This document shows positions 4,817 to 42,434 of a stretch of 42,434 nucleotides of DNA, piece by piece. The stretch is taken from NCBI GenBank assembly GCA_964365465.1, contig CAYIPT010000002.1, positions 1-42,434 of the forward strand, in the 5' to 3' direction. The number at the start of each line of letters is the position of its first letter. The stretch's first letter is position 1. Both the position numbers and the translations under genes were made by a program. A model generated the notes under the pieces. It searched no databases, had not been told where the DNA came from, and saw only the letters and a list, made by a program, of their open reading frames with translations. The DNA comes from an uncultured Candidatus Saccharibacteria bacterium. Its GTDB lineage: Bacteria > Patescibacteriota > Minisyncoccia > Phycocordibacterales > WO2-35-19.

Positions 4817-5593
4817 TTATTTTATGTTTTTCAAGTACGCCAGTGCGCCATAAAGGCCGCCAAAGTCGCCCAGCTCGGCCTTTTTAATAACTGGAATTTG
4901 AGGAAAAATTTTCAAAATTTCTTTCAGGTAATTTTCTGTTTTATCAAGCGGTATAGACGGATCGCCTGTAATCATAGAACCGCCGAGAACGACGCAGTTT
5001 GGCGACCACTCTACAATTATATTGTTAAGTCCGATGGCCAAAAGCCAGGCGTGGGTGTCCCAAACGCCTCGGTCTGTTACTTCTTTAGGATTTTTACCCG
5101 TTTTTTCCTGAAGGGCTTTGCCTGAAATCATATCTTCAAGAGTTATTTTTGTTTCAACATCCATAATCTGCTTGCCAGGCTCAAAACCTATGGCTCGTTC
5201 ATCTATTTTCCCATTCACTATTCTGGCTCCGCCCACACCGGTGGAAACGGTTATATAAGCTACGATTTCAAACCCCCGACCGGCGCCCCAATTGGCCTCG
5301 CCCAACCCCACCACGGCGGCGTCGTTTTCTATAAAGACGATCACTCCGAATTCTTTCTCCAAATCATTTTTTAATTTTTCATCGGTCAAATCGGGAATGC
5401 TTCGGCTCATCCCGCCGGCGATCTTTTTTATTTCTCTCCCCTTCGCCAACTCTTTTGCTGTTCCAACAAAAAATTTCAAAATTTCCCCGTAACTTTTGGG
5501 CGTTTCAAAAACCTTGGGCGTTTCAAAAACCTCCCCGTCTGCCGAGTAAGCCATTCTTATTTTAGTCGCCCCGATATCAAATAATATATACAT
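4817..5593 (-). CDS. ROK-family sugar kinase (glucokinase-like)
   Basis: MYILFDIGATKIRMA is an ATPase phosphate-1 motif, and ENDAAVVGLGE and GGARIV are present. The track ORF starts at 5629 inside an AT-rich repeat, so the ATG at 5593 is preferred. Confidence 0.8.
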   Translation of the reverse strand: MYILFDIGATKIRMAYSADGEVFETPKVFETPKSYGEILKFFVGTAKELAKGREIKKIAGGMSRSIPDLTDEKLKNDLEKEFGVIVFIENDAAVVGLGEANWGAGRGFEIVAYITVSTGVGGARIVNGKIDERAIGFEPGKQIMDVETKITLEDMISGKALQEKTGKNPKEVTDRGVWDTHAWLLAIGLNNIIVEWSPNCVVLGGSMITGDPSIPLDKTENYLKEILKIFPQIPVIKKAELGDFGGLYGALAYLKNIK

Positions 5594-10169: not shown

Positions 10170-10584
10170 TTTTTATCTTATCCATTATACTACAAAATTT
10201 AAATGTCTTGAATTATTCTTATTTTAAGCCATATTTTTGGATTTGACAAAATAACAAGTTCCAGAAGTTGCCGAACCAAATCATGGCTCGGCCCCAAAAA
10301 AGTGTTGGCCGAAATGGCCATGGCCACCTAAACCAAGAAGTTCTCTCAGCCCGAAAAGGGGCCCGTCGCACGCAATTGCGCCGGGCTTTTTCATTCAAAT
10401 TTATACCCTCACTTTTTTAGGTTTCTTTTTTTCTTTTTTATGTCCATCACCTTTGGCCATGAGTTTATTATATCACTTAATGTATTTTTTAAAAATATAA
10501 ACACTTAATTTTGAAAATTACAACAATAAAAGAGCGTTTGCTCTTTTATTATTTATAACAAATATGCCTTTTTGCCGCAAATTA

Positions 10585-10842
10585 TTAGGAAACGAGATGT
10601 TTGGAAATATGCTTGGCCATTTTCATCATATGAACAACACTTTCGCCGCCTAAAACTTTCTTTAATTTTTCATCGGTATTAATCAAGCGTTTGTCTTTTG
10701 AATCCTGAAGATTGTGCGCCTTAATGTAAACCCAAATTTTAGAAACGACCTCTGAACGGGGCATTGGACCAGCGCCTACCACCGCTTCAAGCTCCGGGCT
10801 TAGAGCGTGGGGCTTCATAAAAGCCGAATTTGTTTTTGCCAT
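10585..10842 (-). CDS. SWIB/MDM2-domain protein
   Basis: 85 aa. SPELEAVVGAGPMPRSEVVSKIWVYIKAHNLQDSKDKRLINTDEKLKKV matches the SWIB pattern. Confidence 0.8.
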   Translation of the reverse strand: MAKTNSAFMKPHALSPELEAVVGAGPMPRSEVVSKIWVYIKAHNLQDSKDKRLINTDEKLKKVLGGESVVHMMKMAKHISKHLVS

Positions 10843-10890
10843 ACTTTTAAGTTACTTGCTAATAAACACACTGCAATTATACCACACTAA

Positions 10891-11100
10891 TTAAGCGCGG
10901 GAGACATTGACGGCTGAAGGGCCTTTACCTCCTTCCTCGCCCGGCTTGACTTCGAAGGTAACTCTATTACCTTCTTTCAGATCTCCAAGGGTAACACCAA
11001 CAAGCGAACTTTCGTGGAAAAAGACATCTTTTTCTCCATTATCGGGAGAGATAAATCCAAATGTTTTTCCTTCCATGGGTTTCTTTATTGTTCCTGTCAT
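10891..11100 (-). CDS. Cold-shock domain protein
   Basis: 69 aa. KTFGFISPDNGEKDVFFHES contains RNP1/RNP2-like motifs. Confidence 0.85.
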   Translation of the reverse strand: MTGTIKKPMEGKTFGFISPDNGEKDVFFHESSLVGVTLGDLKEGNRVTFEVKPGEEGGKGPSAVNVSRA

Positions 11101-11269
11101 GAAATTATTTTTTTATTATTTATTATGTATAGATAGAAACTCGACTTTATTTTGCCTTCTTCTAATACTCTTTCATTATAGCTTATTAGCAACTATTTAG
11201 CAATGCTGAATGTTATCAATTATTTTTTGTTCCATTGCTTTTTTATAAAACTATGATATCATATAAATT

Positions 11270-11500
11270 ATGAAAAATACACTGGAAGTCAAACTAAATG
11301 AAATATCGCTTACTCTTTCTGAATTTTTGAAATCATTTAATCAAAATATGCCTTCTAATTTTCCTCAAGTATCCGAGAAGCAGTTGATGAGGTTCAAAAA
11401 AGAACACGAATCTTTATTCAAAAAAAGCGACACCTGGTCGCTTGATCAATATAGAAAAAAAGTTATGGATTGGCTCCCCAGGAACATTGATATTGCATAA
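11270..11500 (+). CDS. Hypothetical protein
   Basis: 76 aa, the only plus-strand ORF here. A -10-like TATCAT lies 7 nt before the ATG. Confidence 0.45.
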   Translation: MKNTLEVKLNEISLTLSEFLKSFNQNMPSNFPQVSEKQLMRFKKEHESLFKKSDTWSLDQYRKKVMDWLPRNIDIA

Positions 11501-12039: not shown

Positions 12040-12918
12040 TTAATTTTTCTGACTGTAATATTCAAAAAGAGCTTTGATGCCGGCGAGATTTTGTTGCCAC
12101 TCAATGGCGTCGTGGGTTTTAAGCTCTACCGTAATGGCGGGAATGTTTATGGAAGCGAGCCACCCCTCAGCGTCACCGGTCACCGCATAAGCGCCAAACG
12201 ATTTGATTGCTGGATAGCCCGAGCCCTTTGAGTAAATGTTCATAATATTGAGTGTCTCCGGAAGAACGCCATTCTCGCACTCTGACGCATACACGGCGTT
12301 TGATTTGCTGTGCCAAAATATGACGGCAGATGGATTGTTTTCTAGGATAAAAATTTTGATAGCCAGAGTTTCAGGTTCGGAAAAAGCGGCTGAGCCGGCG
12401 CTGACTGTTTTTGACTGCCAGGCGCTTTTTGGCTGCCACTTGCAGTCAAAATTTCTGTTGAGATCAACTTTATTTGAATTAAATCGTCCTGATTCTAGTA
12501 TTTTTGTGCTGGTTGACACATCTGTAATATCAAAACGGCCGACCTTGCCTGTTACTGCATAAACTCCGTCCGGATTGGCGTCCGGAATTACTGTCACCGT
12601 CAAATTTTTTGGAATAATTTCTGAATTTTTGTCCAGATAATCCATAAATTGATAAGCTAAAAGAGCGCTGTTCCATTCATACCCGCCGTGTATGCCGCCA
12701 ACGAACACGATTTTCTTTTCTCCATTTCCATAACTATAACTTTCTATTTTTCTCTTTTCTGCAGACAGGCCGATTATTTTATATACCGGGATGAAATTAG
12801 AATTTGGAACCGATTTTGATTTGACCTGTTTTTGCGAACCAATAAACACAAAAACGCCAATGATAAGCATTGCAAAAATAACAATTGCAATAAGCCATTT
12901 AATAAAAGTAGAGCGCAT
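12040..12918 (-). CDS. M14-like zinc carboxypeptidase, membrane-anchored
   Basis: 292 aa with an N-terminal TM segment. GGIHGGYEWNS, NPDG and DLNRNFDC motifs. Confidence 0.75.
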   Translation of the reverse strand: MRSTFIKWLIAIVIFAMLIIGVFVFIGSQKQVKSKSVPNSNFIPVYKIIGLSAEKRKIESYSYGNGEKKIVFVGGIHGGYEWNSALLAYQFMDYLDKNSEIIPKNLTVTVIPDANPDGVYAVTGKVGRFDITDVSTSTKILESGRFNSNKVDLNRNFDCKWQPKSAWQSKTVSAGSAAFSEPETLAIKIFILENNPSAVIFWHSKSNAVYASECENGVLPETLNIMNIYSKGSGYPAIKSFGAYAVTGDAEGWLASINIPAITVELKTHDAIEWQQNLAGIKALFEYYSQKN

Positions 12919-12926
12919 ACTTTTAT

Positions 12927-13823
12927 TTATTTTGATCCGTAATATTTAAGCAGCGCCTCAGCGCCTTTTTGGTTTTTAGCCCACTCTATGTCGGTGTGAT
13001 TCGTGAGGAGCACGCTTATGGCGGGAATATTATTTTTGGCGAGCCAATTTACCATGTCTCCCGTTATGGTGTAAAAATCAAAACTTTGGTAGGCGGGATA
13101 TCCCGAGGCGTCCGCGTATGTTTTGGTGAGAGTATTGGTCTCCGCAGAAACGCCATTGTGGCAACTTGATGCGTAGACACCGCCGGCCGAGCTGTACCAA
13201 ACCACAACCGCTTTTGGTTTGTTTGTTTCCACATAATTTTTTATGGCCAAACTTTCCGGTTCGGAAAACACTGTGTTTCCGCCGCTCACTGTTTTATTTT
13301 GCCATTTGCCCACGGCTTGCCAATCGCAATCAAAGTTGCGATTAAGATCAACATTGTTGGCGTTAAAGCGTCCGGCTATTACCGTGGCCTGAGACGACGA
13401 AACGTTTGCTTGTGAAAAATTGCCTATAGAAGTGCCCACCACTTTATTCAGGCCGTCCGGATTTAATACGGGAATAACTGTCACTTTTAGATTATTAGGA
13501 ATAACATTTGGATTTTCTTTTAAGTAATTTACGAGTTCATAAGCGACAAGAGTCGTATTCCATTCATATCCGCCGTGTATGCCGCCGACAAACAAAATTT
13601 CAGCGCTTCCAGCGCCATAGCGATAAGCCGTGATATCTCGGCCCTGGACTGACTTGCCTATAACCGTTTCTCCCATTTTTTGTTCTTTTGTGGTTGTGGC
13701 GTTTGTGTTTTGTTCTTCCGGCGGTGTGTTTACCACGACCGCATTATCGGAAAAATTTTTGAAAATAAAATATCCGCCGACAGCCAGTAAAACAATAACC
13801 ACAAGCCAAATAATTTTTTTCAT
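12927..13823 (-). CDS. M14-like zinc carboxypeptidase, membrane-anchored (tandem paralog)
   Basis: 298 aa with the same motifs: GGIHGGYEWNT, NPDG, DLNRNFDC. Confidence 0.75.
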   Translation of the reverse strand: MKKIIWLVVIVLLAVGGYFIFKNFSDNAVVVNTPPEEQNTNATTTKEQKMGETVIGKSVQGRDITAYRYGAGSAEILFVGGIHGGYEWNTTLVAYELVNYLKENPNVIPNNLKVTVIPVLNPDGLNKVVGTSIGNFSQANVSSSQATVIAGRFNANNVDLNRNFDCDWQAVGKWQNKTVSGGNTVFSEPESLAIKNYVETNKPKAVVVWYSSAGGVYASSCHNGVSAETNTLTKTYADASGYPAYQSFDFYTITGDMVNWLAKNNIPAISVLLTNHTDIEWAKNQKGAEALLKYYGSK

Positions 13824-13908
13824 TCTATTCGGGTTAATATAATAAAACTAAATTATAGCAAATTTACTCCTAAATATCCATGATTATATTTTAATTCCCC
13901 AAATTCAA

Positions 13909-13990
13909 GCCAACTTACGGGCTGGCGGTCTGCTTTGCTAAGCCGACTTGTCCAGCAAAGCTTCAGCGAAGGTTGGGTACGAAGTTGGAA
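13909..13990. repeat. GC-rich palindromic element related to 21833-21874
   Basis: gctttgct...agcaaagc is a perfect 8-bp inverted repeat. Outer arms are ccaactt.../...aagttgg. The minus-sense core CCTTCGCTGAAGCT..GGACAAGT is shared with 21841-21868. Confidence 0.5.
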
Positions 13991-13995
13991 CTAGT

Positions 13996-14499
13996 TTAAC
14001 ATTGTAGAGCCATAACCATACCGTAGTGGATTATAATTTCTCTGATTGACGATCCTAATTTTGCTTTGTCGGCATGCTCACAAAAAAGTTTAAATATTAG
14101 AATCAATTCTTTAGTTAAACCTCTAACATCCCACTCTTTACTTTTTGGTGTGCCATTTTGTCTGAAAGTCGTGAGGTGTCCAACTTCTTTATCGGCGCGA
14201 ATTTTAGCATCTACCAGTGTTTTGCTTAATTCTGGTCTAATATTTTCCCAAGTTTTTTCGTCAATAAAAAAATCTTTTGCGCATACATCAGTATCTCGTG
14301 GGGAAGAAGGATAAAGAAAGGTAATCAAATTGCGTAAGTGTATTGCGTATGACTCAATGGGTGCATGTTGTAATCCTTGCGCGATTTGTAGTCGTTGTAA
14401 TATTCCACTTGCCATATTAAGCAACATTTGAACTTCGTATCGCACATGTTCCGCAAAATATTCATGCAACTGCTCTTGAGTTAAATCTCTAGTTTTCAT
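13996..14499 (-). CDS. Uncharacterised protein, last gene of the R-M-linked block
   Basis: 167 aa and predicted helical. Rx6H (RADKEVGH) and Rx4H (REIIIH) patterns are present. No family recognised. Confidence 0.6.
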   Translation of the reverse strand: MKTRDLTQEQLHEYFAEHVRYEVQMLLNMASGILQRLQIAQGLQHAPIESYAIHLRNLITFLYPSSPRDTDVCAKDFFIDEKTWENIRPELSKTLVDAKIRADKEVGHLTTFRQNGTPKSKEWDVRGLTKELILIFKLFCEHADKAKLGSSIREIIIHYGMVMALQC

Positions 14500-14542
14500 A
14501 AAACTATTTGGTATAAATTTGGAATTTTAGTATTGTTTAACC

Positions 14543-15310
14543 CTAATTTTTTATTGGTACTTTTTCTTTTCCAATTTGGTATTTATCAAATTTTTCTTTG
14601 TAGGCATTAAAAAGATCTGTGGCAAAATCAAGTATGTTTTTTGTGTGTTTTTCCATATCTTTTGCAACACGTTGTTTTCTTGTCCGAAAACCCGTAGTTC
14701 CCGATTTTTTATTAGTAGTGTTGATGTCCATTTCGTGGATTATTTGATTTCTAACACCAAAAGTTTCTTTTAAGCTTTTTTCTTTTTTGTTTACTAAGTT
14801 TTCTGTGTCTAGCCCAGATGCCTCGGATACCTTACATAACTCGCTAACTGATTGAAGGCTGTCTCCAGACAAGCTTTCAATATAATCTGAAAGAAAAATG
14901 GCTCTCGGATTTTGATCAATCAGCGCAAGCGCAATCGTATTAAGCACAATTGCTTCATTTCTTTTTAATCCTTTTTTAACATAGTCTTTAAATTTATTTA
15001 TGGCAAGCTGATCCACATTAATTAGTTCTGGTAATTTAGTTTTTATTAGTTGTTTAACAAACACGTCTAGGCCCGAGCAGGCAAAAACGAGCATGGCTCT
15101 ATATAAATCCTGTTGTGCAGAAGTTGAAGGGCCACCAAGAATCCCTTTTCTACCAGCTTGATAAAGCGATCTGAAACTATTTACTGCCTCAACTGTTTTT
15201 GATAAGGAAACATATTCCGGGTAAAAAATATCTCTTTCTTTCTGTGGTGTAAGCGATAAAATGTAAAAATTTTTAACCTTTTTAACTCTTTTTGAAATAG
15301 TCTTTTTCAT
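14543..15310 (-). CDS. Uncharacterised protein with a HEPN-like RNxxxH motif
   Basis: 255 aa. FGVRNQIIHEMD, with R187 to H192 encoded at 14735-14752, lies in a helical C-terminal half. Confidence 0.6.
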   Translation of the reverse strand: MKKTISKRVKKVKNFYILSLTPQKERDIFYPEYVSLSKTVEAVNSFRSLYQAGRKGILGGPSTSAQQDLYRAMLVFACSGLDVFVKQLIKTKLPELINVDQLAINKFKDYVKKGLKRNEAIVLNTIALALIDQNPRAIFLSDYIESLSGDSLQSVSELCKVSEASGLDTENLVNKKEKSLKETFGVRNQIIHEMDINTTNKKSGTTGFRTRKQRVAKDMEKHTKNILDFATDLFNAYKEKFDKYQIGKEKVPIKN

Positions 15311-15317
15311 AAGTTCT

Positions 15318-15653
15318 TTACGTTACATTGTCTTCCTCGGCAGGAAGAGCAGAAGCCATTGCTGTGGAAAATAATCCATCAAAATGAGTTAGAACAGATT
15401 CTATAAAACGGCCATGGTAAATTGCGTATATAACAGATGATATGCTTTTATTTTTTGGTCGGAGTATAGAAAAAATAAGTTGCTGTGAGCTAATCTTTGG
15501 ACGGAGCCATGCTTGATATTTCCATTGTTCGGTATTATGTGTAAAGTCTCCATTTTCATCAACAAGCCAAGTAACTATTCGCCCATCTTTTATAGCTTTT
15601 TTTATTTCACCAAGAAGCAATTGTGGATTAGTTGTATTAAAATATATGGCCAT
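15318..15653 (-). CDS. Uncharacterised small protein
   Basis: 111 aa. 11 nt downstream of the endonuclease candidate and 7 nt upstream of the next gene. Confidence 0.55.
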   Translation of the reverse strand: MAIYFNTTNPQLLLGEIKKAIKDGRIVTWLVDENGDFTHNTEQWKYQAWLRPKISSQQLIFSILRPKNKSISSVIYAIYHGRFIESVLTHFDGLFSTAMASALPAEEDNVT

Positions 15654-15664
15654 AAATAAAACGA

Positions 15665-16186
15665 TTAATTGGGTACTGGCAATCCTAATTTTTGCAAAGG
15701 CAAATATTCAAAATAATATTGGCAACCAACAGAAATTATATAATCCAAGACATCTTTATAAACTGGATTTTTGAACCATTCGCTTAAAATATAAATGTAT
15801 TCAACTTCTATATTTAGAGGAGCCATCAGTTTAGCGTATTGTTTCCTTTTGAAATCGCAAGTTTGCAATTTTTCATCAACCGAACCAGCAACTTTTTGAA
15901 ACTTAACCTCAATGACAAACAGTGTGTTATTTATGATCACATACAGGGCTTCGTCTGGGAGTAATTTTTTTGAAAGAATTTTTTTATAGTCAACTTTTTG
16001 AGATTCAAGAAATTTATATAGAGCATTTTTCCTATAACTTCTAGCTACTTCTTTCTTTTCGTAAAAAATAACATTGCCTTTTACTTCATATCCTTTCTTC
16101 TTTTTTAAGAGCTGTAGAATATCCGTTTCTTTTTCAAAATTAAGTCCTGTTATTGTGTTTCCTCCGCCAACCCCTTTTTCTATCAT
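15665..16186 (-). CDS. Type II restriction endonuclease candidate (PD-(D/E)XK)
   Basis: 173 aa. LPDEALYVIINNTLFVIEVKFQK fits a D...ExK motif. It starts 11 nt after the methyltransferase stop. Confidence 0.55.
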   Translation of the reverse strand: MIEKGVGGGNTITGLNFEKETDILQLLKKKKGYEVKGNVIFYEKKEVARSYRKNALYKFLESQKVDYKKILSKKLLPDEALYVIINNTLFVIEVKFQKVAGSVDEKLQTCDFKRKQYAKLMAPLNIEVEYIYILSEWFKNPVYKDVLDYIISVGCQYYFEYLPLQKLGLPVPN

Positions 16187-16197
16187 GTTATTTTTTA

Positions 16198-17019
16198 TTA
16201 AATTTTTAAATCCCCAAATCTTTTTTTTGATAATTCCAAATAGTTTTTTTCCATGTCTATACCGATAAACTTTCTGTCATTCAAGGCGGAAGCAATACCA
16301 GTGGTAGAACTGCCCGTGAAAGGATCAAGCACTACATCCCCCTTATTAGTACTAGATAACACGATCCTTCTTAAAAGATCAAGTGGTTTTTGTGTTGGGT
16401 GTTTGCCATATTTTTTCTCCTCTGGTTTTGGTGGATTAACAGACCAAACAGAACGCATTTGCAAATTTGGCTTTTTCAATTTATCTTCTATCCAATCCCC
16501 ATTTTTCATTAAATCGTAATTGAAAGTATGCTTGGCTTTTTTCTCTTTTCTTGCCCAAATAATCGTCTCGTGGCTGGCAGTAAAAAATCGGCAACTTAAA
16601 TTTGGCGAAGCATTTGGTTTGAACCAAGAAATGTCATTTAAGATGTGATAACCGAGAGATTGCAAAGCGTGTCCGCATTGATAAATTGAATGGTATGTTC
16701 CGCTTACCCAGAGCGTTCCGCTTGGTTTTAATACTCTCTTGCATGCCTCAAGCCAGCGATAATGAAAATCATAGTCATCATTAAAACCTTTGCTTATGTC
16801 CCAAAATCCTTTGTTTACACTTACCATTCTTCCTGCATGAACGGTAAATCCTCCATTTGAAAGATTGTATGGAGGATCGGCAAAAATCATATCAATAGAA
16901 TTATCTGGCAATTGGGAAAGAATACTTAAGCAATCACCTAAATACAGCACAAAATTGCCACTTATAAAATATGGTCTATTTTGAACTATTGAAAGTATTT
17001 TTCTTTCGGCTACTACCAT
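16198..17019 (-). CDS. DNA N6-adenine (or N4-C) methyltransferase, beta-type order
   Basis: 273 aa. IFADPPYNL (motif IV) comes first and DPFTGSSTTGIAS (motif I) lies near the C-terminus. Confidence 0.9.
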   Translation of the reverse strand: MVVAERKILSIVQNRPYFISGNFVLYLGDCLSILSQLPDNSIDMIFADPPYNLSNGGFTVHAGRMVSVNKGFWDISKGFNDDYDFHYRWLEACKRVLKPSGTLWVSGTYHSIYQCGHALQSLGYHILNDISWFKPNASPNLSCRFFTASHETIIWARKEKKAKHTFNYDLMKNGDWIEDKLKKPNLQMRSVWSVNPPKPEEKKYGKHPTQKPLDLLRRIVLSSTNKGDVVLDPFTGSSTTGIASALNDRKFIGIDMEKNYLELSKKRFGDLKI

Positions 17020-17091
17020 AATTACTAAATTATAGCATCAAATTCTTTTTGAAGATAACAAAACAAAACGCATATACCAGAAAATCAAGTG

Positions 17092-17162
17092 CTGGGAGGG
17101 AAGGAATCGGACCTTCATACACAGCTTCAAAGGCTGTTGTCCTACCGTTAGACGACCTCCCA
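17092..17162 (-). tRNA. tRNA-Gln (UUG)
   Basis: Hand fold: acceptor UGGGAGG/CCUCCCA, D arm GUCU-AACGGUA-GGAC, anticodon arm ACAGC-CUUUGAA-GCUGU, T arm GAAGG-UCCGAUU-CCUUC. No encoded CCA. Confidence 0.8.
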
Positions 17163-17166
17163 ATAT

Positions 17167-17418
17167 TTATTTTTCAATTTTTAACTTTCCTTCCATTATT
17201 TCTCTACCGTACCCAGTTTTATAAAATTTTTCAGCCCGCTTTGCTAAACTGTAAGAAGTATAAGCCTCATAATACATTAATTCAAATGGCCCGTTGTTCT
17301 TCGTGTACTTTCCTCCTGTTCCACTATTATGTTCCGCAAATCTCCTTTTTAAATTATCTGTAGAGCCACAATAGAACCGGCTATTCTTCTTACTTCTTAA
17401 AATATAAGTATAAAACAT
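17167..17418 (-). CDS. GIY-YIG nuclease family protein (YhbQ-like)
   Basis: MFYTYILRSKKNSRFYCGSTDNLKRRFAEHNSG...YYEAY. The track ORF N-terminal extension (to 17481) runs through a tRNA fragment and a GC-rich insert. The stop lies 4 nt before the tRNA-Gln 5' end. Confidence 0.8.
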   Translation of the reverse strand: MFYTYILRSKKNSRFYCGSTDNLKRRFAEHNSGTGGKYTKNNGPFELMYYEAYTSYSLAKRAEKFYKTGYGREIMEGKLKIEK

Positions 17419-17422
17419 GGAT

Positions 17423-17482
17423 TTGTCCTCGCCTCTCCGGCGAGTCGCCGAGGAGGCGACTACCGTTAGACGACCTCCCAAT
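17423..17482 (-). repeat. Duplicated 5' part of tRNA-Gln interrupted by a 32-nt GC-rich palindromic insert
   Basis: 17460-17482 is identical to 17142-17164 (23 nt). ttgtcct at 17423-17429 matches 17137-17143. The intervening ~17428-17459 is tcgcctc...gaggcga. Confidence 0.8.
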
Positions 17483-42369: not shown

Positions 42370-42434
42370 CGGAATATAGTATAGTGGTAGTATACACGCT
42401 TCGGGTGCGTGAGGCTCCGGTTCGATTCCGGGTA
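42370..42434 (+). tRNA. tRNA-Pro (CGG), 3' acceptor strand truncated by the window end
   Basis: CGGAAUA acceptor 5' strand, D arm GUAU-AGUGGUA-GUAU, anticodon arm CACGC-UUCGGGU-GCGUG, T arm UCCGG-UUCGAUU-CCGGG. Confidence 0.75.

Follow-up and report, generated by a model that had tools for sequence, protein, structure and literature searches.

A probable composite defence islet with a restriction-modification pair and a two-gene HEPN cassette beside tRNA-Gln in an uncultured Patescibacteria-type bacterium

Members of the Patescibacteria, or Candidate Phyla Radiation (CPR), have tiny genomes, and their immunity is poorly known. The stretch described here, called the window throughout, comprises positions 1 to 42,434 of contig CAYIPT010000002.1 from an uncultured groundwater bacterium of this type. 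Its subject is a block of five open reading frames (ORFs) on the minus strand beside a tRNA-Gln gene, which encode proteins of 273, 173, 111, 255 and 167 amino acids (aa) separated by gaps of 11, 11, 7 and 43 nucleotides (nt). The guanine-plus-cytosine (GC) fraction of the block is 0.33–0.345, compared with 0.39–0.43 in both flanks. A GIY-YIG gene and dnaX lie beyond the tRNA, on the side away from the block. An earlier interpretation made from the letters alone, referred to here as the sequence-only reading, had given the same order, sizes and gaps, and the ORF map agrees with it; ARAGORN, Rfam and Pfam likewise confirm the tRNA-Gln and the nearby GIY-YIG gene that it named. Its view of the region as a defence-type islet on the side of a tRNA is also upheld. 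The interpretation favoured here, and held to be probable, is that of a composite defence islet at a tRNA-Gln hotspot, consisting of a restriction-modification (R-M) pair, a HEPN cassette resembling toxin-antitoxin (TA) or abortive-infection (Abi) modules, and an unrelated gene, p167. The islet would occupy a variable spot downstream of dnaX, the GIY-YIG gene and tRNA-Gln. The genes of the block and its tRNA side are the following.

17167 to 17481: GIY-YIG protein, 104-aa ORF (Pfam match)
17091 to 17162, minus strand: tRNA-Gln, anticodon ttg (ARAGORN; Rfam tRNA, 61.8 bits), with its 3' side toward the block
16198 to 17019, minus strand: type II DNA methyltransferase (MTase), 273 aa, beta-class N6/N4, ADPPY motif, CcrM/HinfI-like
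15665 to 16186, minus strand: RE173, candidate restriction endonuclease, 173 aa, PD-(D/E)xK
15318 to 15653, minus strand: p111, small alpha/beta protein, 111 aa, of a family without a Pfam entry
14543 to 15310, minus strand: HEPN255, RiboL-PSP-type HEPN protein, 255 aa, predicted RNase effector (toxin)
13996 to 14499, minus strand: p167, all-helical protein, 167 aa

The first two genes of the block are those of the R-M pair. The MTase matches PF01555 at 4.8e-60 and has ADPPY in its translation, which bears out the DPPY methyltransferase named before. It also matches the PADLOC model MTase_II at 2.5e-96 and the NCBIfam CcrM model at 1.1e-71, the latter with a score far below the cut-off of that model. 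The translation of RE173 contains the motif P77-D78...E93-V-K95, and the proposal that the MTase and the 173-aa protein form an R-M pair is plausible, with the motif present and the Pfam support below threshold. Searches with tblastn showed that Neisseria gonorrhoeae has an MTase homolog (52% identity) followed by an RE173 homolog (46–67% identity), the two being adjacent and in the same order, and that the RE173 homolog is split there by a frameshift. The gonococcal pair is at locus L080 (NZ_CP119140, record positions 10190–11467) and is chromosomal, although PLSDB lists this record among its plasmids. A Leuconostoc plasmid carries an RE173 homolog (28% identity) behind a DNA adenine methylase. 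The MTase and RE173 are taken to be a probably genuine type II R-M pair that spreads horizontally. The MTase, with adenine or N4-cytosine as its target, would protect host DNA, and RE173 would cut incoming unmodified DNA.

The fourth gene of the block encodes HEPN255. This protein matches Pfam HEPN_RiboL-PSP (PF18735) over residues 62–197 with 34.2 bits (gathering score 28.4, E = 3e-8). In an alignment of 28 homologs R187 and H192 are invariant within R187-N-x-I-x-H192-E-M-D-I (RNQIIHEMDI in the alignment), that is, an Rx4H motif, and R209, R211, Q213 and R214 are likewise invariant. The invariant Rx4H predicts a metal-independent RNase. More than 217 homologs of HEPN255 were found, chiefly in Patescibacteria/CPR assemblies, and PF18735 was already precomputed on most of them. 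Anantharaman et al. (2013; PMC3710099) have defined RiboL-PSP-HEPN as a predicted RNase toxin distantly related to AbiD/AbiF, and have recorded its contexts as a fusion to endoRNase L-PSP and an operon with ParB. Neither an L-PSP fusion nor a ParB operon is present in the window or in the cassette loci examined; such linkage is a context of the family and not a condition for membership of the HEPN domain. The sequence-only reading had recognised no family for the three proteins downstream of the R-M pair, which stands for p111 and p167 and fails for the 255-aa protein, since that protein exceeds the PF18735 gathering score. It had also noted HEPN-like R-x4-6-H patterns in two of the proteins. 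Both patterns are invariant in their families (R187-x4-H192 in HEPN255 and R101-x6-H108 in p167), and HEPN255 is the only one of the two with support as a HEPN protein. The only match of HEPN255 in PADLOC-DB v2 was DpdC (15 bits, E = 0.004), scans of viral contigs returned no HEPN255 relatives, and PDB sequence searches with single proteins and profiles gave nothing meaningful for RE173, HEPN255, p167 or p111. In locus L005 (7241–8738), a Ymh-type HEPN protein (PF09509) stands in the place of p111 upstream of a RiboL-PSP-HEPN gene, and locus L029 (2–1632) has two HEPN paralogs in tandem.

The association of HEPN255 with p111 was followed in 38 loci with HEPN255 relatives, fetched from genome and metagenome collections, and nearly all of the named ones are Patescibacteria/CPR. 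In 20 of the approximately 25 loci with room for it, the HEPN gene has a p111 homolog as its immediate upstream neighbour, and the gap between the two genes is 5–49 nt in 22 loci. The pairwise distances of p111 and HEPN also correlate (Mantel r = 0.69, a value reached by none of 2000 permutations). That p111 and HEPN255 form a functional pair is held with great confidence. In six loci, the window included, this cassette comes –11 to +37 nt behind a co-oriented type II R-M system, and six different nucleases are involved.

Window: N6_N4 MTase, 173-aa PD-ExK nuclease
L001: C5 MTase, R.HinP1I nuclease plus Vsr
L002: N6_N4 MTase, MvaI/BcnI nuclease
L006: N6_N4 MTase-SNase, MjaI nuclease
L021: N6_N4 MTase, DUF6996/DUF6997 as nuclease
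L027: N6_N4 MTase, MutH-like nuclease

The MTases of the window (15665–17019), L021 (3634–5596) and L027 (3104–4541) share 72–75% mutual identity, yet the genes that stand before p111-HEPN in these three loci are unrelated. DUF6996/DUF6997 may be an unrecognised restriction endonuclease. Since the upstream nuclease varies between loci, the cassette is a self-contained add-on and cannot belong to one given R-M enzyme as a subunit. It also adjoins, in various loci, a TIR/SEFIR protein, RadC together with AbiEii and HsdM, a serine recombinase or an integrase. The expectation that a further immunity-type component follows the R-M genes is thus borne out by the recurrence of the p111-HEPN cassette behind type II R-M in these six loci. 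The PADLOC check that had been suggested for the block matched no system model significantly with the genes other than R-M; PADLOC-DB v2 does not recognise the cassette and has no match for RE173, p111 or p167. The idea that HEPN RNases act as a second prong alongside R-M systems has been published (PMC3710099), and the occurrence of the cassette behind R-M in six loci fits it.

The analysis leans, more cautiously than for the pairing itself, towards a TA- or Abi-type RNase module as the nature of the p111-HEPN255 pair. The cassette is probably co-transcribed with the R-M genes. Once active, HEPN255 would cleave cellular RNA, phage RNA or both, and growth would halt. Its small partner would be obligate and would most likely serve as an antitoxin, as a sensor of the trigger, or as both, and would restrain the RNase until the cell is infected or the cassette is lost. 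Two layers of defence would result, with DNA restriction acting first and an RNA-level shutdown following when restriction fails.

The p111 family extends far beyond these loci. No Pfam, NCBIfam, PADLOC or PHROG family includes p111. A profile search of 1.84 billion (1.84e9) representatives gave 821 clusters, defined at 50% identity, with E<=1e-3, and nearly all of their proteins stand alone at about 110 aa. The AlphaFold2 (AF2) model of p111 has a predicted local distance difference test (pLDDT) score of 93 and a compact beta-alpha-beta4-alpha-beta fold. Foldseek found no PDB neighbour of this model at E<0.1, and its sole significant structural match comes from Burkholderia phage BEK and is itself uncharacterised (E = 3.6e-5). 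The family occurs in Patescibacteria, Proteobacteria, plasmids and temperate phages, and its neighbours are diverse. Protein P0308 is a fusion of PIN_8 with a C-terminal p111 part, and PIN_8 is followed by p111 with gaps of 2 nt in L083 and L084. On plasmid pKOB3 of Komagataeibacter p111 precedes an NYN-domain protein, and on pGT2 of Acidithiobacillus it precedes a TIR protein. Elsewhere p111 is followed by a caspase-type Peptidase_C14, with an OLD-like ATPase adjoining, and in IMG/VR contigs it overlaps the start of proteins of about 990 aa with HD-CE plus HATPase_c_3. On a Pantoea plasmid p111 stands right behind an anti-phage dCTP deaminase. Across the partner classes W29, W44 and E85 are invariant, T28, A48, P52, Y76 and Y79 are nearly so, and YHG[RH] is largely kept. 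An L-PSP/RidA-type RNase, a candidate prompted by the name of the HEPN family, is ruled out for p111 by the lack of a PF01042 match and of a structural match. Literature searches found no account of the p111 family or of the cassette, and such an absence is no proof. It is tentatively proposed that p111 founds an undescribed, widespread family that would act as a hyperpromiscuous neutraliser or infection sensor for at least six unrelated effector classes, namely HEPN, PIN_8, NYN, TIR, caspase-type Peptidase_C14 and HD-CE/GHKL.

Several observations weigh against the composite reading or against one of its parts. The Pfam matches of RE173 are weak, with PDDEXK_11 at 7.6e-4 and NERD at 5e-3, and both are below the gathering score. 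A sibling assembly from the same Hainich groundwater site, L052, is 99.94% identical to the window over 8.4 kb, and its MTase gene has a nonsense change, E201* (window position 16419), together with two substitutions (16405 and 16396), all within 24 nt, while its RE173 gene is intact. These changes stem either from an MTase-inactivating variant in the population or from a mistake in assembly; an MTase stop beside an intact RE173, if real, argues against an active nuclease. The HEPN status of HEPN255 is drawn from its Pfam score and its motif. An R-M system is directly upstream in only 6 of about 21 distinct cassette loci, and the link between R-M and the cassette may reflect shared hotspots and not function. 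An exact 14-nt direct repeat, ACTAAATTATAGCA, brackets all five genes, p167 included, as would fit one inserted unit. The remaining points concern p111 as an inhibitor. The gene also occurs alone, in the accessory parts of P2-like prophages of Burkholderia and Ralstonia, Pfam, NCBIfam and PHROG show no DNA-binding domain (HTH, RHH or AbrB) in the protein, and p111 is more conserved than its HEPN partner (mean distance 0.355 versus 0.417). In addition, its polar core is fixed whatever the partner, so that a ligand-binding or catalytic role fits at least as well.

The last two of these points also suit a different role for p111, in which it would be a sensing or enzymatic component that, for example, produces or binds a small molecule or detects a phage product, and that switches on the adjacent effector instead of inhibiting it. 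A confident, compact alpha/beta fold without a PDB neighbour, and the number of unrelated effector partners, with the C-terminal fusion to PIN_8 among them, are consistent with such a role. However, with 111 aa p111 would be a small sensor-enzyme, the searches yielded no family with a nucleotide-binding or catalytic function, and orphan inhibitors or anti-defence genes would more readily account for the solo copies in prophages. A sensor or enzyme of this kind is considered unlikely, while the narrower question, whether p111 inhibits its partner or acts instead as an activator or enzyme, is judged to be evenly balanced.

A second alternative accepts the cassette as a toxin and its antidote and denies it any role against phages, so that p111-HEPN255 would be a plain addiction (TA) module that stabilises the islet or the R-M genes. 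The order of the cassette, with the small gene first and short gaps, is what such a module would have. Both sides of the pair swap partners, a typical trait of type II TA networks: p111 is combined with several effectors, and distant HEPN relatives have an unrelated partner of about 100 aa with Bflower-like and PGY-repeat parts. The location of the cassette beside recombinases and on plasmids points the same way. The neighbours, however, are predominantly defence genes, including R-M, TIR, AbiEii, an OLD-like ATPase and a dCTP deaminase, and p111 is unusually conserved and has no recognisable DNA-binding or autoregulatory domain. A pure addiction role is regarded as rather unlikely, and the composite defence islet is retained. 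The distant branch just mentioned is a RiboL-PSP-HEPN lineage of about 30% identity, and the protein that precedes its HEPN gene is Bflower-like in its N-terminal part and has PGYPGY repeats. It is represented by L035 (2177–3138), L037 (2032–2926) and L038 (40–725).

The last gene of the block, p167, behaves differently from the cassette. It has 55 homologs and no Pfam family, and the residues H18, E22, E49, H54, R56, N57, D71, R101, E105, H108, R113 and W123 are invariant. Its AF2 model is all-helical with a pLDDT of 89. No p167 homolog is present in any of the 38 HEPN-anchored loci, and p111 and HEPN255 are absent from the p167 loci of other genomes (about ten distinct contexts). Because each is absent from the loci of the other, p167 is placed outside both modules. 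In four other genomes p167 directly follows a tRNA on the same strand.

L065 (stretch 4927–5507): tRNA-Gln upstream, 0 nt to p167, the ATG coming after the encoded CCA; behind dnaX and an HTH gene
L047: tRNA-Asn upstream, 51 nt to p167; between argH and asnS
L066: tRNA-Gln upstream, 57 nt to p167
L049: tRNA-Gln upstream, 135 nt to p167; dnaX further upstream

These distances of 0–135 nt suggest co-transcription of tRNA and mRNA or a functional link with tRNA-Gln and tRNA-Asn. In other loci the space between tRNA-Gln and p167 is filled with different genes. In the window it contains the R-M genes plus the cassette, in L039 a serine recombinase, a 158-aa gene, a Shedu SduA_C gene and a zinc-finger gene, and in L045 four small uncharacterised genes. 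An R-M system plus cassette also follows tRNA-Gln in L002 and L027. Hence the best reading of p167 is that of a resident gene, linked to the tRNA, at the flank of a variable spot, and not of cargo. Shedu (SduA_C) stands directly upstream of p167 in two genomes, L039 (1943–6507) and L042 (2876–6507); the serine recombinase of L039 abuts tRNA-Gln, and L042 has a Y1 transposase.

It is quite improbable that p167 is instead a solitary HEPN-like or metal-dependent toxin or defence gene of islands that target tRNA genes. Such a gene would account for the invariant R101-x6-H108 with its set of invariant H, E, D, R and N residues, for the adjoining Shedu genes in two distinct genomes, and for a weak DinB_2 match (0.0022) in one member of the family. 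The profiles of p167, however, bear no likeness to those of the HEPN255 family, Foldseek returned no PDB structure at E<1, whether HEPN or DinB, HEPN toxin structures appearing only in the noise, and p167 sits between housekeeping genes right after a tRNA. It is also absent from the viral-contig scans and from the plasmid search. The narrower candidate of p167 as a second HEPN protein was dropped as unsupported after hhalign showed no relation between the p167 and HEPN255 profiles.

The borders of the block were examined for signs of integration. The features at issue are the two copies of the 14-nt repeat and a hairpin.

17024 to 17037: first copy of the repeat, 5–18 nt upstream of the MTase start codon
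13909 to 13926, minus strand: terminator-like hairpin after p167 (consensus scan), with a second hairpin behind it
13847 to 13860: second copy of the repeat, between p167 and the carboxypeptidase gene, overlapping a promoter-like site of the latter

No further copies of the repeat are present in the window, even with 2 mismatches allowed. On the minus (coding) strand the repeat reads TGCTATAATTTAGT and contains an extended –10 box, TGCTATAAT. The promoter-like site of the carboxypeptidase gene, found by consensus scan on the minus strand at 13880–13852, is TGGATA-17-TATAAT with an upstream TG. Since the repeat holds an extended –10 box, a duplicated promoter is as likely an explanation as an insertion scar. 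An att repeat derived from the 3' end of tRNA-Gln was sought at both candidate borders of the islet and was not found. The block encodes no recombinase and the window no integrase; recombinases are present at the equivalent spot in L039 and L007. On the far side of the block, what had been described as a GC-rich palindromic element turned out to be the terminator-like hairpin with the second hairpin behind it, and 13895–14000 folds no more stably than shuffled sequence (z = 0.04). A structured RNA or the end of a mobile element is ruled out for this stretch by the shuffled folding control, and Rfam is empty there.

That all five genes, or the three uncharacterised ones, are one cooperating defence system acquired as a unit is highly improbable: the tight packing on one strand, the low GC across the whole block and a repeat that brackets exactly these five genes suit it, but p167 and the cassette keep apart in other genomes, p167 stands behind a tRNA also in places that lack defence genes (L065, L047), the R-M genes upstream of the cassette vary among loci, and the repeat, with its extended –10 box, may stem from promoter duplication instead of marking an att site. 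The single module of five or three genes in the sequence-only reading is consequently not borne out, and the trio was not found together outside this genome, an outcome that the reading had itself named as refuting it. Tight same-strand packing beside a tRNA is the reason why three unrelated units looked like one system encoded by an operon. The composite architecture of the block is held with good confidence, a firmer grade than is given to the defence roles proposed for its parts.

Some further features of the surroundings were recorded. Directly past p167, at window positions 12040–13823, are two paralogous genes in tandem for M14 carboxypeptidases of 292 and 298 aa, both of which have a hydrophobic segment at the N-terminus. 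Stand-alone small GIY-YIG proteins of 80–104 aa recur by tRNA genes near variable spots in several Patescibacteria loci, as in the window (17167–17481), L007 (7251–7490) and L042 (9161–9439). At 42370–42434 Rfam gives a fourth tRNA, truncated at the end of the window and right after tRNA-Leu, which was not called by ARAGORN.

Several described systems resemble parts of the islet. HEPN255 shares with RiboL-PSP-HEPN (PF18735; PMC3710099) a score above the gathering threshold and the invariant Rx4H, but it is unfused, is paired with p111, which is not L-PSP-like, occurs mostly in Patescibacteria and is often behind type II R-M. PrrC/EcoprrI and RloC (PMC3710099) are likewise HEPN RNases encoded with R-M systems as a second, suicidal line of defence. 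They are large proteins in which an N-terminal ABC-type ATPase is fused to the HEPN domain, they go with type I (or type III) R-M, and PrrC is silenced by the R-M complex itself, whereas HEPN255 has 255 aa, a HEPN domain as its only domain and no ATPase, follows type II R-M with six nucleases and has its own small partner. The Panacea/DUF4065 TA systems (PMC8832971, PMC10440598) also have a small gene by a toxin and one domain that is combined with many unrelated toxins across phyla, phages and plasmids. In contrast, p111 is unrelated in sequence to DUF4065, has neither a Pfam family nor a DNA-binding domain and shows stronger conservation than the protein with which it is paired. Among its partners are TIR, caspase and HD-GHKL proteins, kinds more characteristic of defence effectors than of classical TA toxins, and neutralisation by p111 is a proposed activity. 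The HEPN-MNT module (HepT/MntA, type VII TA) likewise consists of two genes, that of a HEPN RNase and, upstream of it, that of a small partner. A minimal nucleotidyltransferase (MNT) is nevertheless ruled out for p111, which has no family match (NTP_transf) and no MntA structure among its Foldseek results. With the defence hotspots next to tRNA genes the locus shares variable cargo between a tRNA and a flank gene, lower GC and recombinases in sister loci; it differs from them in that the window has no integrase, the bracketing repeat is not derived from the tRNA and p167 follows different tRNAs depending on the genome.

Overall, R-M pairs, HEPN toxins, the layering of HEPN with R-M and tRNA-adjacent hotspots are already known, and the part worth following up is the promiscuous p111 family. 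A two-gene HEPN cassette found repeatedly behind type II R-M at tRNA-Gln spots in CPR would provide a concrete example of layered DNA and RNA defence in these organisms. If p111 is a general inhibitor or sensor, it would offer a guilt-by-association handle on further toxin and effector genes, and it would define a combinatorial class of immunity or TA systems of two genes that is new. On the same assumption, the solo p111 copies of prophages could be counter-defence decoys, and the family could explain some of the solo genes in prophage defence hotspots.

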